Below are positions 10,121 through 62,095 of a stretch of 64,000 nucleotides of DNA, in pieces. Positions within the stretch are counted from its first letter, which is position 1. Every line of letters starts with the position of its first letter. Source of the DNA: Escherichia coli O157:H7 (GTDB lineage Bacteria > Pseudomonadota > Gammaproteobacteria > Enterobacterales > Enterobacteriaceae); assembly GCF_013167455.1 (NCBI RefSeq), contig NZ_CP038328.1; one strand, given 5' to 3'. The position numbers were made by a program, and so were the translations under genes. Below the pieces are notes generated by a model. The model made no database searches. It was not told the origin of the DNA and saw nothing but the letters and a program-made list of their open reading frames with translations.

Positions 10121-10197
10121 GGCTACGTAGCTCAGTTGGTTAGAGCACATCACTCATAATGATGGGGTCACAGGTTCGAATCCCGTCGTAGCCACCA
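10121..10197 (+). tRNA. metT: tRNA-Met (elongator, CAU)
   Basis: ggctacgtagctcagttggttagagcacatcactcataatgatgg...gccacca; cloverleaf with CAT anticodon and encoded CCA. Confidence 0.95.
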
Positions 10198-10207
10198 TCT
10201 TTTTTTT

Positions 10208-10292
10208 GCGGGAGTGGCGAAATTGGTAGACGCACCAGATTTAGGTTCTGGCGCCGCAAGGTGTGCGAGTTCAAGTCTCGCCTCCCGCACCA
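10208..10292 (+). tRNA. leuW: tRNA-Leu (long variable arm)
   Basis: gcgggagtggcgaaattggtag...cctcccgcacca, an 85-nt class II tRNA. Confidence 0.9.
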
Positions 10293-10315
10293 TTCACCAG
10301 AAAGCGTTGTACGGA

Positions 10316-10390
10316 TGGGGTATCGCCAAGCGGTAAGGCACCGGTTTTTGATACCGGCATTCCCTGGTTCGAATCCAGGTACCCCAGCCA
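10316..10390 (+). tRNA. glnU: tRNA-Gln (UUG)
   Basis: tggggtatcgccaagcggtaaggcaccggtttttgataccgg... with TTG anticodon and CCA end. Confidence 0.95.
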
Positions 10391-10424
10391 TCTTCTTTGA
10401 GTAAGCGGTTCACCGCCCGGTTAT

Positions 10425-10499
10425 TGGGGTATCGCCAAGCGGTAAGGCACCGGTTTTTGATACCGGCATTCCCTGGTTCGAATCCAGGTACCCCAGCCA
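10425..10499 (+). tRNA. glnW: tRNA-Gln (UUG), identical copy
   Basis: Identical to the 10316-10390 sequence. Confidence 0.95.
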
Positions 10500-10514
10500 T
10501 CGAAGAAACAATCT

Positions 10515-10591
10515 GGCTACGTAGCTCAGTTGGTTAGAGCACATCACTCATAATGATGGGGTCACAGGTTCGAATCCCGTCGTAGCCACCA
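10515..10591 (+). tRNA. metU: tRNA-Met (elongator, CAU), second copy
   Basis: Identical to the metT sequence. Confidence 0.95.
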
Positions 10592-10639
10592 AATTCTGAA
10601 TGTGTCGAATACGTTCGGCAAATTCAAAAACCAATTTGT

Positions 10640-10714
10640 TGGGGTATCGCCAAGCGGTAAGGCACCGGATTCTGATTCCGGCATTCCGAGGTTCGAATCC
10701 TCGTACCCCAGCCA
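10640..10714 (+). tRNA. glnV: tRNA-Gln (CUG), wild-type anticodon
   Basis: tggggtatcgccaagcggtaaggcaccggattctgattccgg...; anticodon CTG, not the CTA of supE. Confidence 0.95.
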
Positions 10715-10751
10715 ATTTATTCAAGACGCTTACCTTGTAAGTGCACCCAGT

Positions 10752-10826
10752 TGGGGTATCGCCAAGCGGTAAGGCACCGGATTCTGATTCCGGCATTCCG
10801 AGGTTCGAATCCTCGTACCCCAGCCA
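10752..10826 (+). tRNA. glnX: tRNA-Gln (CUG), second copy
   Basis: Identical to the 10640-10714 sequence. Confidence 0.95.
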
Positions 10827-16374: not shown

Positions 16375-17913
16375 ATGGCTTTTGCCTCATTAATTGAACG
16401 CCAGCGCATTCGCCTGCTGCTGGCGTTATTATTCGGTGCCTGCGGAACGCTGGCCTTCTCTCCTTACGACGTCTGGCCTGCGGCGATTATTTCGCTGATG
16501 GGGCTTCAGGCGTTGACCTTTAACCGCCGTCCACTCCAGTCTGCCGCTATTGGCTTTTGCTGGGGATTTGGCCTCTTTGGCAGCGGTATTAACTGGGTCT
16601 ATGTCAGCATCGCGACCTTTGGCGGAATGCCTGGCCCGGTTAACATCTTCCTGGTGGTACTGCTGGCGGCGTATTTGTCGCTGTATACCGGACTGTTTGC
16701 TGGCGTGCTGTCGCGCCTGTGGCCGAAAACCACCTGGCTGCGCGTGGCGATTGCCGCCCCTGCTCTCTGGCAAGTGACCGAGTTTCTGCGCGGTTGGGTA
16801 CTGACAGGCTTCCCGTGGTTACAGTTCGGCTATAGCCAGATTGATGGCCCGTTAAAAGGGCTGGCACCGCTAATGGGCGTGGAAGCCATTAACTTCCTGC
16901 TTATGATGGTTAGCGGCCTGCTGGCACTGGCGTTAGTCAAACGCAACTGGCGTCCGCTGGTGGTGGCCGTCGTGCTGTTTGCCCTTCCCTTCCCGCTGCG
17001 TTACATCCGGTGGTTTACCCCACAACCGGAGAAAACCATTCAGGTTTCGATGGTTCAGGGCGATATTCCGCAATCGCTGAAATGGGACGAAGGCCAGCTT
17101 CTTAATACGCTGAAGATTTACTACAACGCAACGGCACCGCTGATGGGCAAATCATCGTTGATTATCTGGCCGGAGTCGGCGATAACCGATCTGGAAATTA
17201 ATCAGCAACCGTTCCTCAAAGCACTGGACGGTGAGTTGCGTGATAAAGGTAGCTCGCTGGTGACCGGGATTGTTGACGCGCGTCTTAATAAGCAGAACCG
17301 TTACGATACCTACAACACCATCATCACACTGGGTAAAGGTGCACCGTACAGCTACGAATCAGCCGATCGCTATAACAAAAACCATCTGGTGCCGTTTGGC
17401 GAGTTTGTCCCGCTGGAGTCGATTCTGCGTCCGTTAGCACCGTTCTTTGATCTGCCGATGTCGTCGTTCAGCCGTGGGCCATATATCCAGCCGCCGCTGT
17501 CGGCAAATGGTATTGAGCTTACTGCGGCTATTTGCTACGAGATCATTCTCGGCGAGCAAGTGCGCGATAACTTCCGCCCGGATACCGACTATCTGCTGAC
17601 TATCTCCAACGATGCGTGGTTTGGTAAGTCTATTGGTCCATGGCAGCACTTCCAGATGGCGCGAATGCGTGCGCTGGAGCTGGCGCGCCCACTGTTGCGC
17701 AGCACCAACAACGGCATTACGGCGGTGATTGGCCCGCAGGGTGAGATTCAGGCGATGATCCCGCAGTTCACCCGCGAGGTGTTAACCACTAACGTGACGC
17801 CGACCACCGGACTCACACCATACGCACGTACCGGCAACTGGCCGCTGTGGGTGCTGACGGCACTGTTTGGTTTTGCTGCTGTGTTGATGAGTCTGCGTCA
17901 GCGACGTAAATAA
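16375..17913 (+). CDS. lnt: apolipoprotein N-acyltransferase
   Basis: 512-aa ORF with multi-TM N-terminus and CN-hydrolase domain. Confidence 0.95.
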
Positions 17914-18011
17914 TCCCTTCTTATCGTGCCGGAATACATCCCATATTTCGGCACGCTCACCGGATGCGGCATCAGTGCATTATCCGGATAACAATATTCT
18001 CCTATCCAACT

Positions 18012-18028
18012 TTGGCACATCTATTGCT
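18012..18028 (+). promoter_or_regulatory. candidate sigma54 (-24/-12) promoter upstream of gltI
   Basis: tTGGCACatctaTTGCt matches TGGCAC-N5-TTGC with the GG and GC elements 10 nt apart; about 280 bp upstream of gltI. Confidence 0.5.
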
Positions 18029-18309
18029 TTGTTATACAAGGCAAAGCTTTAACCAGCATCAGTACAACCCGGTTGCACCACAGCAATCCACCGGTAGCAC
18101 CAAAAGAGTGCATTTTAAGAATTTTGCTTCGGAATGGTGCGGCGCACCTCCCAAATATAAACAATAAAACAGCAATATCTTTACATTTAGCCAAACTAAA
18201 TGTTACCTAACAGGCACAACACTACACAATAAAGTTGCAGATGATAACAACACAAACACTCACAACGGGTATCCATGCGTTCTTAACGCAGAAGATAAAG
18301 GAGTTGGAT

Positions 18310-19218
18310 ATGCAATTACGTAAACCTGCCACAGCAATCCTGGCCCTGGCGCTTTCCGCAGGACTGGCACAGGCAGATGACGCCGCCCCGGCAGCGGGCA
18401 GTACGCTGGACAAAATCGCCAAAAACGGCGTGATTGTCGTCGGTCACCGTGAATCTTCAGTACCTTTCTCTTATTACGACAATCAGCAAAAAGTGGTGGG
18501 TTATTCGCAGGATTACTCCAACGCCATTGTTGAAGCAGTGAAAAAGAAACTCAACAAACCGGACTTGCAGGTGAAACTGATTCCGATTACCTCACAAAAC
18601 CGTATTCCGCTGCTGCAAAACGGCACTTTTGATTTTGAATGTGGTTCTACCACCAACAACGTCGAACGCCAAAAACAGGCGGCTTTCTCTGACACTATTT
18701 TCGTGGTCGGTACGCGCCTGTTGACCAAAAAGGGCGGCGATATCAAAGATTTTGCCGACCTGAAAGGCAAAGCCGTAGTCGTCACTTCCGGCACTACCTC
18801 TGAAGTTTTGCTCAACAAACTGAATGAAGAGCAAAAAATGAATATGCGCATCATCAGCGCCAAAGATCACGGTGACTCTTTCCGTACCCTGGAAAGCGGT
18901 CGTGCCGTTGCCTTTATGATGGATGATGCTCTGCTGGCCGGTGAACGTGCGAAAGCGAAGAAACCAGACAACTGGGATATCGTCGGCAAGCCGCAGTCTC
19001 AGGAAGCCTATGGTTGCATGTTGCGTAAAGACGATCCGCAGTTCAAAAAGCTGATGGATGACACTATCGCTCAGGTGCAGACCTCCGGTGAAGCGGAAAA
19101 ATGGTTTGATAAATGGTTCAAAAATCCCATTCCGCCGAAAAACCTGAACATGAATTTCGAACTGTCAGACGAAATGAAAGCACTGTTCAAAGAACCGAAT
19201 GACAAAGCACTGAACTAA
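18310..19218 (+). CDS. gltI: glutamate/aspartate ABC transporter periplasmic binding protein
   Basis: Starts MQLRKPATAILALALSAGLAQA (signal peptide); 302 aa. The ORF-track start at 18235 is an upstream in-frame ATG. Confidence 0.9.
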   Translation: MQLRKPATAILALALSAGLAQADDAAPAAGSTLDKIAKNGVIVVGHRESSVPFSYYDNQQKVVGYSQDYSNAIVEAVKKKLNKPDLQVKLIPITSQNRIPLLQNGTFDFECGSTTNNVERQKQAAFSDTIFVVGTRLLTKKGGDIKDFADLKGKAVVVTSGTTSEVLLNKLNEEQKMNMRIISAKDHGDSFRTLESGRAVAFMMDDALLAGERAKAKKPDNWDIVGKPQSQEAYGCMLRKDDPQFKKLMDDTIAQVQTSGEAEKWFDKWFKNPIPPKNLNMNFELSDEMKALFKEPNDKALN

Positions 19219-19374
19219 TTACAAGAACCAGGGGCGGAAATTCTAGCCCTCTCGATTGTTACGTAGCACGGACAGACTATACGCCTGATGGTCGTTCCCC
19301 ATCGGGCCTGAAAACCGCAATACGCTGGGTAACAATCTTCGAGGGTAGCAGTTAACGCTGCTACCCTCTTTTTT
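19215..19374 (+). ncRNA. sroC: SroC sRNA (GcvB sponge) in the gltI-gltJ intergenic region
   Basis: Position and size match the known gltI 3'UTR-derived sRNA; ends at terminator hairpin gagggtagcag ttaacg ctgctaccctc plus T6 (19341-19374). Confidence 0.55.
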
Positions 19375-19387
19375 CTGGAGTAGATTT

Positions 19388-20128
19388 ATGTCTATAGACT
19401 GGAACTGGGGTATTTTTTTACAACAAGCCCCGTTCGGCAACACCACCTATCTTGGTTGGATCTGGAGTGGTTTTCAGGTGACGATCGCTTTGTCGATCTG
19501 CGCCTGGATTATCGCTTTCCTCGTCGGTTCATTTTTCGGTATTTTACGTACCGTTCCAAACCGTTTTCTCTCCGGTCTGGGTACGTTGTATGTCGAACTG
19601 TTCCGCAACGTGCCGTTGATTGTGCAATTCTTTACCTGGTATCTGGTGATCCCGGAGCTGCTGCCGGAGAAAATCGGCATGTGGTTTAAGGCCGAGCTGG
19701 ATCCCAATATTCAGTTTTTCCTTTCATCCATGCTCTGCCTGGGGCTGTTTACCGCCGCCCGTGTTTGCGAACAGGTACGCGCCGCGATTCAGTCGCTGCC
19801 GCGTGGGCAGAAGAATGCCGCGCTGGCTATGGGTCTGACGCTGCCGCAGGCTTACCGCTACGTACTGCTGCCTAATGCTTATCGCGTTATCGTCCCGCCG
19901 ATGACCTCAGAGATGATGAACCTGGTGAAAAACTCCGCCATCGCCTCGACCATCGGTCTGGTAGATATGGCAGCGCAGGCGAGTAAATTGCTCGATTACT
20001 CGGCTCACGCCTGGGAGTCGTTTACCGCCATTACGCTAGCGTATGTGTTTATTAACGCTTTTATCATGCTGGTGATGACGCTGGTTGAACGTAAAGTTCG
20101 CCTGCCTGGCAACATGGGGGGCAAATAA
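19388..20128 (+). CDS. gltJ: glutamate/aspartate ABC transporter permease
   Basis: 246-aa multi-TM ORF; recognised. Confidence 0.95.
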
Positions 20129-20802
20129 TGTACGAGTTTGACTGGAGTTCCATTGTCCCTTCCCTGCCATATCTGCTCGACGGGCTGGTGATCACGCTGA
20201 AAATCACCGTCACGGCAGTCGTGATTGGTATTTTGTGGGGCACCATGCTGGCGGTGATGCGCTTGTCCAGCTTTGCGCCCGTAGCGTGGTTTGCCAAAGC
20301 CTACGTTAACGTATTCCGCTCGATTCCTTTAGTTATGGTTTTGCTGTGGTTTTACCTGATCGTGCCGGGTTTTCTGCAAAACGTGCTGGGATTATCACCA
20401 AAAAATGATATCCGTTTAATTTCGGCGATGGTGGCGTTTTCGATGTTTGAAGCGGCCTACTATTCAGAGATTATCCGTGCCGGTATTCAAAGTATTTCTC
20501 GTGGTCAGTCGAGCGCCGCGCTGGCGTTGGGAATGACTCACTGGCAGTCGATGAAACTGATTATTCTGCCGCAGGCGTTCCGCGCGATGGTGCCGCTGCT
20601 GCTCACTCAGGGCATCGTACTGTTCCAGGATACCTCGCTGGTGTATGTGTTATCTCTGGCCGATTTCTTCCGTACCGCCTCAACCATTGGTGAGCGTGAT
20701 GGCACGCAGGTTGAGATGATCCTGTTTGCCGGATTTGTTTATTTCGTTATTAGCCTTAGCGCGTCGTTGTTGGTCAGCTACTTGAAAAGAAGGACAGCAT
20801 AA
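20128..20802 (+). CDS. gltK: glutamate/aspartate ABC transporter permease
   Basis: 224-aa ORF; start overlaps the gltJ stop. Confidence 0.95.
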
Positions 20803-21527
20803 TGATTACCCTGAAAAATGTTTCAAAATGGTATGGTCACTTTCAGGTGCTGACCGACTGCTCAACCGAAGTGAAAAAAGGCGAAGTGGTGGTGGTTTGC
20901 GGCCCGTCTGGTTCCGGCAAATCAACGCTGATTAAAACCGTCAACGGCCTCGAACCAGTGCAGCAAGGTGAAATCACCGTCGATGGTATCGTGGTTAACG
21001 ACAAGAAAACCGATCTGGCAAAGCTGCGTTCTCGCGTCGGGATGGTATTCCAACATTTCGAGCTGTTCCCTCATCTGTCGATTATCGAAAACCTGACCCT
21101 GGCGCAGGTGAAAGTGCTTAAACGCGATAAAGCACCGGCTCGTGAAAAAGCATTGAAATTGCTGGAGCGCGTGGGACTTTCCGCACATGCCAATAAATTT
21201 CCGGCGCAGCTTTCCGGCGGCCAGCAGCAGCGTGTGGCAATTGCTCGCGCATTGTGTATGGATCCTATTGCGATGCTGTTCGACGAACCCACATCGGCAC
21301 TAGACCCGGAGATGATCAACGAAGTACTGGACGTGATGGTGGAACTGGCGAACGAGGGGATGACCATGATGGTGGTGACCCACGAAATGGGCTTTGCCCG
21401 TAAAGTGGCGAATCGGGTGATCTTTATGGATGAGGGTAAAATTGTTGAAGACTCGCCGAAAGATGCGTTCTTCGATGATCCGAAATCGGACCGCGCAAAA
21501 GACTTCCTCGCGAAAATCCTGCATTAA
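20802..21527 (+). CDS. gltL: glutamate/aspartate ABC transporter ATP-binding protein
   Basis: 241-aa ORF with Walker [10 protein letters not shown] and ABC signature LSGGQQQR. Confidence 0.95.
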
Positions 21528-48512: not shown

Positions 48513-48545
48513 AAAAAAAACCCGCTGATTAAGCGGGTTTTGAAT
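48513..48545. terminator. bidirectional terminator between crcB and cspE
   Basis: aaaaacccgct gatta agcgggtttt. Confidence 0.7.
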
Positions 48546-48560
48546 TCTTGCTGACGTATC

Positions 48561-48770
48561 TTACAGAGCGATTACGTTTGCAGCAGAAGGGCCTTTGGCA
48601 CCGTTAGTGATTTCGAACTCTACGCGCTGACCTTCAGCAAGAGTTTTAAAACCATTAGTCTGGATTGCAGAGAAGTGTACGAACACGTCTTTGCTGCCGT
48701 CTTCCGGAGTAATGAAACCGAATCCTTTGGACTCATTAAACCACTTAACGTTACCTTTAATCTTAGACAT
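48561..48770 (-). CDS. cspE: cold-shock-domain protein CspE
   Basis: Starts [20 protein letters not shown]; 69 aa. The ORF-track start at 48854 is an upstream in-frame ATG in the leader. Confidence 0.95.
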
Positions 48771-48944
48771 CAAAATTACCTTTACATGAAAAATAGACAC
48801 AAATGCTGTGTCGGTTACCAGTACACCAATTGTGGTACGCTTTGTCCAGTGCAACTTTACTAAAAAGTGATAAAAATCGCGTTATTTTTGATGTTGCTTA
48901 TTTTAGTTATTGATTTTAAAGAAGTTACTAAAACTTCATTTGTC

Positions 48945-49505
48945 TCAAAACTGAAAGCGCATCCAGGCAAAGTACACATTGCCATTGTTGTAGGTACCCG
49001 GAATGTAGGTCATCTGAAAAGTAACTGGGCCATAACCCACGGAGGCCAATGGCAGTAGAACCGGGAGAGGGATGTAATTCCAGTTATCGCGTGCCGTTAC
49101 GCCAGCGGTGAATCCCAGACCTAAATGAAAATTTTCATCCGCCAGCGGTCGCCAGGTACTTTCCCATCCGTATCCGGCAATCGGTTCCCATTTGTTCCAC
49201 GAGTCCTTAAATGCCATGGCATACAGGCCATGCCAGTTTCCTTTTTCATCCCAACGCGACAGGCCAAAACCGCCACCCCACGGTCGCTCGTTATAGCGAT
49301 CGGTTTTTTCTTTGTCGTAAGCGAAACGTGCATGCCAGGTGATGGCAGGAATATATAAATCATAATGTTCAGGCTGTTGCCAGGTTTGTACAATATTTTC
49401 TCTAAACGTTGTCATCCACTCATCTGCGTTAGCAAAAACTTTACCAACGCTGATTAACTGAATAAAAACAAAGGAAAAGATAGCGACATATTTACTCACG
49501 TTCAT
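48945..49505 (-). CDS. pagP: lipid A palmitoyltransferase PagP (outer membrane)
   Basis: Starts [25 protein letters not shown]; 186 aa. Confidence 0.9.
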
Positions 49506-61866: not shown

Positions 61867-62012
61867 TCCTCTGATTTACAAAACACGCTAATTCGTCTTT
61901 CATAAACCATGACGATTAAGAATTATACATAATGCGCTGCATTGAGGAATTCCCTGAATGTGACGCAAATCACTTCAAAGAGTGAGCAACAGTCAGTATC
62001 ATCATGTGAGTT

Positions 62013-62047
62013 AAACCCTCGCCGCCTGACGGTGAGGGTTTTCTTTT
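62013..62047 (+). terminator. hairpin plus T-run in the rna-rnk intergenic region
   Basis: aaccctcgcc gcctgac ggtgagggtt followed by ttctttt. Confidence 0.45.
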
Positions 62048-62095
62048 GGGTATGTTTATCTGCGACACTCGCAGTACCGACGACATGGAGTAAAA

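Follow-up and report, generated by a model that had tools for sequence, protein, structure and literature searches.

The native control region of the gltIJKL operon and its SroC sponge RNA in Escherichia coli O157:H7

We analyzed a stretch of 64 kb of E. coli O157:H7 DNA (the window, by which we mean this stretch at its full length) around the gene gltI. The region is very likely, with a probability of about 90% for the explanation as a whole, the native control region, free of interruptions, of gltIJKL, the operon for a glutamate/aspartate ABC transporter, with a sigma-54 promoter linked to nitrogen limitation upstream of gltI, and with the small RNA SroC, a sponge of the regulatory RNA GcvB, at its 3' end. 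We base this reading on sequence features, conservation, SroC family membership and pairing potential observed here, together with published data on sigma-54 and NtrC binding, induction by nitrogen limitation in O157, processing by RNase E and sponge activity. Every essential element is already known from descriptions and tests in E. coli and/or Salmonella, and the region therefore carries little weight as a discovery. The genes and spacers are arranged as follows:

up to 17913: lnt, which ends at 17913
17914-18309: lnt-gltI spacer, 396 bp
18298-18303, plus strand: AAGGAG, Shine-Dalgarno sequence of gltI
18310-19218, plus strand: gltI, starting with an ATG at 18310 and coding for the periplasmic glutamate/aspartate-binding protein of 302 aa (from the open reading frame and the sequence)
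19388-20128, plus strand: gltJ (open reading frame)
20128-20802, plus strand: gltK (open reading frame)
20802-21527, plus strand: gltL (open reading frame)

The three downstream genes (gltJ, gltK and gltL, 19388-21527) code for the membrane and ATPase components of the transporter and follow each other in the same order as in K-12, and GltI is 99% identical to its K-12 counterpart. The 1.6 kb surrounding gltI are 100% identical to many E. coli O157:H7 chromosomes, in which the genes are annotated in the order lnt - gltI - gltJ.

The sigma-54 motif between lnt and gltI

The promoter elements upstream of gltI are:

18012-18028, plus strand: the sigma-54 17-mer TTGGCACATCTATTGCT (exact sequence)
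18013-18028, plus strand: sigma-54 -24/-12 promoter TGGCAC-ATCTA-TTGCT, with GG at 18014-18015 and GC at 18026-18027

This 17-mer is intergenic, 100 bp past the lnt stop codon and 283 bp ahead of the gltI ATG; it lies on the strand of gltI and holds the -24 GG and the -12 GC at their fixed spacing. It is the only perfect match to TGGCAC-N5-TTGCW (TGGCACNNNNNTTGCW) on both strands of the 64 kb, where 0.07 would be expected. Seven of 100 shuffles of the window also contained one such match, and matches with one mismatch occur at chance level (3 observed, 3.07 expected). As the lone perfect match is only mildly unusual by itself, its significance rests on its position, orientation and conservation.

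To follow conservation independently of the promoter, we collected loci from one genome per species by anchoring on the conserved SroC core and then located gltI in each of them, counting the 42 enterobacterial loci that had at least 300 bp upstream of gltI. The sigma-54 motif (GG and GC intact, at most one mismatch) was present in 42/42, always at the orthologous position, 286-332 bp upstream of the ATG. These loci cover at least 12 genera, among them Escherichia, Salmonella, Citrobacter, Enterobacter, Kluyvera, Kosakonia, Raoultella, Klebsiella, Siccibacter, Phytobacter, Intestinirhabdus and Huaxiibacter. In an alignment of 41 sequences, the -24 columns TGGCA(C/T) and the -12 columns TTGC(T/A) are at least 95% conserved, while the N5 spacer takes about 24 different forms and the sequence upstream of -24 is not alignable and shows no conservation. 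Such strict maintenance of -24 and -12, with spacer and upstream sequence free to vary, is the signature of selection on sigma-54 recognition. No second sigma-54 motif, in particular none nearer to gltI and 3' of the NtrC-like sites described below, is present in any of the 42 loci at up to two mismatches with GG and GC fixed. A sequence at 18212-18227, AGGCAC-N5-TACA, was considered as a sigma-54 motif and rejected, as it has no -12 GC.

The match might also be a chance occurrence in an AT-rich intergenic region, as the matches in shuffled windows and the chance frequency of one-mismatch sites would allow. This explanation is effectively refuted by the correct strand and position of the motif, by its orthologous conservation, and by direct binding data for the identical sequence. 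In K-12, the identical 17-mer corresponds to a sigma-54 ChIP-seq peak (site OS04 in Table 1 of Bonocora 2015, PMC4591121; FAT 21, PSSM 11.7), which was flagged as an EcoCyc-predicted promoter with insH3 as the downstream gene, an assignment due to the IS5 element that follows the motif in that strain. In Salmonella LT2, the gltI motif TGGCACGTCTATTGCTTT (STM0665) was enriched in sigma-54 ChIP-chip (Samuels 2013, PMC3844500), and the gltI operon has been listed as NtrC-dependent (PMC4987338). Moreover, gltIJKL is an NtrC ChIP-seq target in nitrogen-starved E. coli (Brown 2014, PMC4066584), and in gSELEX the RpoN holoenzyme, NtrC, and both together bind the insH-lnt spacer in vitro (Shimada 2021, PMC8743547).

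Miyakoshi et al. (2022) describe both a sigma-70 and a sigma-54 promoter for gltIJKL, and report that nitrogen limitation induces SroC in O157, O111 and Salmonella, and only marginally in K-12. The test suggested by an initial annotation of this DNA has thus in essence already been performed, in the same pathotype. This annotation had proposed a -24/-12 motif upstream of gltI and nitrogen-regulated expression of the gene; the first is found exactly at 18012-18028, as the sole perfect match of the window, and the second agrees with the published sigma-54 and NtrC binding and with the nitrogen-inducible SroC of O157.

NtrC-like sites and a conserved block in the leader

Downstream of the sigma-54 motif, the spacer contains the following features:

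18074-18090, no strand assigned: NtrC-like site, half-site only (scan)
18096-18112, no strand assigned: NtrC-like site AGCACCAAAAGAGTGCA, 14/17 (scan)
18125-18141, no strand assigned: NtrC-like site TGCTTCGGAATGGTGCG, 14/17 (scan)
18124-18215, plus strand: about 90 bp of near-invariant sequence in the leader/promoter region (profile from the alignment of 41 enterobacterial sequences)
18180-18185 and 18204-18209, plus strand: candidate sigma-70 promoter with putative hexamers TTTACA and TACCTA, an 18-nt spacer, and TG at 18201-18202

NtrC recognizes the consensus TGCACC-W4-TGGTGCA, and we scanned the window for TGCACC-N4-TGGTGCA with at most three mismatches. Three of the 14 distinct sites in the 64 kb fall inside 68 bp (18074-18141), all of them on the gltI side of the sigma-54 motif, about +36 to +103 relative to the predicted start. 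At the same threshold, the stretch between 10758 and 18074, which takes in the sequence above the promoter and the 3' end of lnt, holds no site. In the middle site, conservation of the half-sites GCACC and GTGCA reaches at least 95% among the 41 sequences, with most genera carrying GCACCGAAACGGTGCA, and the third site (18125-18141) is likewise conserved across genera. The sites lie within looping distance of the promoter, in an atypical, downstream position. Activation by looping is flexible with respect to position, and on this ground we infer that the downstream NtrC-like sites may serve as the enhancer of the sigma-54 promoter.

Published NtrC ChIP-seq and gSELEX peaks do fall within the lnt-gltI spacer. 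However, at glnK and glnH, where the upstream NtrC sites are known, the NtrC ChIP-seq peaks are likewise centered on the sigma-54 motif; ChIP is thus too coarse to place NtrC upstream or downstream of the motif at gltI. That gltI represents a natural, family-wide case of a sigma-54 enhancer located downstream of its promoter, inside the transcribed leader, is a tentative idea to which we give about one chance in four. If it were true, the sigma-70 promoter region beyond these NtrC sites could be under their control as well. We found no discussion of such an architecture at gltI in the accessible literature, and it may well be covered by Reitzer and Schneider 2001 or by EcoCyc.

Concerning the sigma-70 promoter, for which the accessible text of Miyakoshi et al. 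(2022) has no coordinates, a simple scan of the plus strand from 17880 to 19420 returned no consensus-grade promoter, and the position given above was therefore placed from conservation alone. The near-invariant block that surrounds it may hold further, undescribed regulatory sites. The target of the K-12 IS5 element also sits within this block (18124-18215). Two points that we did not find documented in the accessible literature are modest leads: the position of the conserved NtrC sites on the far side of the promoter, within the leader, and the ultraconserved block.

Transcription from the sigma-54 promoter would start at about 18039 and produce a leader of about 270 nt. An unlikely alternative is that the sigma-54 motif is bound and unproductive, nitrogen control being exerted through the sigma-70 promoter, for example by Nac or by NtrC acting on sigma-70 polymerase. 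Many sigma-54 bound sites in E. coli are indeed transcriptionally inactive, with no associated transcript (PMC4591121), and a promiscuous activator raises expression of the Salmonella gltI operon by only 1.8-fold (PMC3844500). In addition, the accessible literature yielded no published 5' end at about 18039, and Miyakoshi 2015 refers to a 'single gltIJKL promoter', both of which count against our preferred reading; one promoter region is described as giving rise to both the full-length operon mRNA and a gltI-only mRNA. The arrangement of the NtrC-like sites could also fit this alternative, since they are located past the sigma-54 motif and some 70-110 bp ahead of the putative sigma-70 promoter. 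The E. coli sites reach only 14/17 and are atypically downstream of the sigma-54 promoter, which speaks against our preferred reading.

On the other hand, -24 and -12 are strictly kept in 42/42 loci while spacer and upstream sequence vary freely, which argues for selection on sigma-54 recognition, and Miyakoshi et al. (2022) explicitly describe a sigma-54-dependent promoter of the operon. The behavior of K-12 does not separate the two models, since its IS5 would disconnect the NtrC sites and the sigma-54 motif alike. We retain a productive sigma-54 promoter as the preferred reading.

SroC, its terminator and the GcvB circuit

The features of the RNA part of the circuit are:

18246-18266, plus strand: C/A-rich element of the gltI 5' UTR, target of the GcvB R1 region and translational enhancer (described for Salmonella gltI; conserved)
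19214-19376, plus strand: SroC sRNA, 163 nt (Rfam RF00369), overlapping the gltI stop codon
19270-19277, plus strand: SroC site GGACAGAC, pairing with GcvB nt 156-163 (RNAduplex, K-12 GcvB)
19293-19298, plus strand: SroC site CGTTCC, pairing with GcvB nt 13-18 (RNAduplex)
19341-19374, plus strand: Rho-independent terminator common to the short gltI mRNA and SroC, with its stem at 19341-19368 and T6 at 19369-19374

The 3' end of gltI and the gltI-gltJ spacer match the SroC family (RF00369) at 170.8 bits (E = 3.8e-37; gathering score 45) over the full model positions 1-163, and the RNA closes with a Rho-independent end. It is identical to the annotated K-12 sroC (b4763) at 162/163 positions. The predicted fold has three stem-loops, with a minimum free energy of -64.1 kcal/mol (z = -5.9). 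A terminator scan gave a hairpin of 12 pairs, 7 of them G-C, and the fold of SroC contains the same hairpin, which is described as conserved in published work on SroC. Two further Rfam matches were below threshold and were discarded: sbrA (25.1 bits), which covers the terminator hairpin only, and naRNA4 (21.9 bits), which corresponds to a REP-like element.

The initial annotation had assigned the gltI-gltJ spacer to SroC, the sponge of GcvB, and had suggested an alignment with the annotated sroC as a check; the near-identity to K-12, the Rfam score and the synteny confirm this assignment. It was also correct about a strong hairpin plus T6 at the end of the spacer, with the T6 ending at 19374, precisely where it had set its end. 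Its spacer of 170 bp exists and measures 169 bp.

The two SroC sites agree with published genetics. C19273 corresponds to SroC C63 and faces GcvB G160, and C19297 corresponds to SroC C87 and faces GcvB G14; the published compensatory mutants SroC C63G/GcvB G160C and SroC C87G/GcvB G14C coincide with these pairing sites. Shuffled segments give duplex energies as good as those of the two sites (-16.2 and -17.8 kcal/mol), so that the argument for pairing rests on the published mutants and not on energy. RIL-seq has also captured SroC-GcvB chimeras in E. coli. In the gltI leader, RNAduplex pairs 18235-18275 of the window with nt 54-93 of K-12 GcvB at -38.7 kcal/mol.

In Salmonella, RNase E together with Hfq releases SroC, with a 5' monophosphate, from the gltI mRNA, and SroC in turn triggers the decay of GcvB by RNase E; this decay de-represses gltI and many other amino-acid genes. 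The homologues from E. coli have also been shown to function. It might be asked whether SroC is instead a primary transcript from a promoter of its own inside the 3' end of gltI, as is the case for DapZ and MicL, 3' UTR sRNAs whose promoters are internal to the upstream gene. We regard this as highly improbable: published SroC has a 5' monophosphate and no associated start site, and matures from a longer precursor in a manner that needs RNase E and Hfq, the plus-strand scan of 17880-19420 found no sigma-70-like promoter, and, in Miyakoshi et al. (2022), SroC induction tracks the promoter region upstream of gltI, being lost where the K-12 IS5 is present.

With SroC as a processing product of the gltI mRNA, the elements can be assembled into a model. 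A sigma-54 RNA polymerase would wait as a closed complex on TGGCAC-N5-TTGCT (18013-18028) and, under nitrogen limitation, would be activated by phosphorylated NtrC, possibly bound to the sites at about 18096-18141. Transcription would begin near 18039 and proceed through the leader of about 270 nt into gltI, with a sigma-70 promoter further downstream, probably near 18180-18210, providing expression in other conditions. The C/A-rich element of the leader (18246-18266) would boost translation, and GcvB would repress gltI at this same element. The majority of transcripts would end at the hairpin-T6 terminator (19341-19374), and read-through of this SroC terminator would allow expression of gltJKL. 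RNase E, acting with Hfq, would process the gltI mRNA at its 3' end and thereby release the stable 163-nt SroC (19214-19376), which would pair with GcvB at 19270-19277 and 19293-19298 and lead to its decay by RNase E, and thereby to the de-repression of gltI and of many other amino-acid transport and metabolism mRNAs.

The IS5 insertion of K-12 and comparison with known systems

The main difference between the window and K-12 concerns a single position in the lnt-gltI spacer:

18207-18210, no strand assigned: CTAA, empty IS5 target site; in K-12 MG1655, IS5D/insH3 is inserted at the equivalent site

In MG1655, IS5D (insH3) is annotated between gltI and lnt, and, according to the junction sequences, the element is inserted 180 bp past the sigma-54 motif, with another 103 bp to the gltI ATG. 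Taking out IS5D and one CTAA of its duplication leaves a K-12 spacer that is colinear with that of the window, both being 396 bp long and identical at 381/396 positions, and the sigma-54 motif is unchanged. We found no IS element in the lnt-gltI spacer (17914-18309) of the O157 window. The initial annotation had stated that no IS element separates the promoter region from lnt in this strain; the absence holds, whereas the geometry that it implies does not, as the K-12 element separates gltI from the promoter.

Among 5426 complete E. coli genomes, 350 carry the IS5-gltI junction; the 30 junction records listed are K-12 laboratory strains or K-12-like strains (MG1655, C600, DH5alpha, J53 and others). 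The uninterrupted arrangement of the window is the normal one. In wild-type arrangements such as that of the window, the promoter feeds directly into gltI and, with it, into SroC, and this connection ties nitrogen limitation, via NtrC, to the relief of GcvB repression across amino-acid transport genes. The marginal induction of SroC by nitrogen limitation in K-12 is attributed to the IS5 upstream of gltI by Miyakoshi et al. (2022). K-12-based databases assign the sigma-54 promoter to insH3, since an IS5 specific to the K-12 lineage cuts it off from gltI, and the region is of use as a point of annotation in this respect. Conclusions on Ntr control of gltIJKL and SroC derived from K-12 will underestimate what happens in natural isolates.

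Among known systems, glnAp2 and glnHp2, the classical NtrC-activated sigma-54 promoters, combine a -24/-12 element with a tandem of NtrC palindromes spaced by about three helical turns (29 bp at gltI), and they share with gltI membership of the Ntr scavenging regulon. Their NtrC sites lie about 100-140 bp upstream of the promoter. Unlike them, gltI has its sole conserved NtrC-like sites downstream, at about +36 to +103, with nothing conserved above -24.

SroC keeps the features of its family in E. coli and Salmonella, with its locus between gltI and gltJ, its terminator, and both GcvB pairing sites intact. It differs from the K-12 RNA by a T for a C at 19245, which leaves G-U in place of a G-C pair in stem-loop 1 and falls in neither of the GcvB pairing sites.

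The closest relatives of the promoter described here are the sigma-54 promoters of gltI (ybeJ) in K-12 and Salmonella, which share its position relative to lnt and the downstream NtrC-like sites; the 17-mer is identical in K-12 and differs by one spacer base in Salmonella. In K-12, however, IS5 (insH3) lies 180 bp downstream of the motif and the nitrogen induction of gltI and SroC is nearly lost, whereas the O157 window shares with most E. coli a direct connection of the promoter to gltI.

Spacer between lnt and the gltI promoter

Past the stop codon of lnt and ahead of the sigma-54 promoter of gltI (18013-18028) lies a REP-like palindromic element, listed here with three other features of the window.

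10121-10823, plus strand: cluster of seven tRNA genes, matches to Rfam RF00005
17928-17989: REP-like palindromic element in the lnt-gltI spacer, upstream of the sigma-54 promoter
48513-48955, minus strand: cspA thermoregulator family, Rfam match at gathering level (123.4 bits)
61942-62050, plus strand: enterobacterial rnk leader, Rfam match at gathering level (124.9 bits)

The REP-like element gives a weak, sub-threshold match to the Rfam family naRNA4 on the minus strand (21.9 bits versus 59.5), and in other species the part of the spacer that holds it is replaced by unrelated sequence. Two Escherichia loci of the enterobacterial comparison, L069 (Escherichia sp. MOD1-EC7003) and L033 (E. whittamii), carry a divergent version of the promoter, TGGCATGTAAGTTGCT, about 297 bp upstream of gltI, which retains both the -24 and the -12 elements and is preceded by unrelated AT-rich sequence.

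A near-invariant block upstream of gltI

Across at least 12 enterobacterial genera, a stretch of about 90 bp (18124-18215) shows almost no variation, and the rest of the lnt-gltI spacer is visibly less conserved. This block probably contains the sigma-70 promoter, and perhaps further regulator sites, and it is also where the IS5 insertion point of K-12 falls. Within 18147-18158, O157 and K-12 differ at four positions (18147, 18151, 18156, and 18158). At two of these, 18151 (C instead of G) and 18156 (T instead of A), O157 departs from the family consensus as well as from K-12, and both positions are otherwise at least 95% conserved in the family.

NtrC-like sites downstream of the sigma-54 promoter

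Conserved NtrC-like sites are located at 18074-18141, downstream of the promoter (approximately +36 to +103 from the predicted start site), and no conservation was found upstream of the -24 element among the 41 enterobacterial sequences. In the best palindrome, the left half-site reads AGCACC in O157 versus AGCACT in K-12: position 18101 is C in O157 and in nearly all other genera, and the T of K-12 therefore places its site one step further from the consensus. In K-12, this base change comes on top of the disruption by IS5. By comparison with glnAp2 and glnHp2, the position of the gltI NtrC-like sites, as putative enhancers, is atypical.
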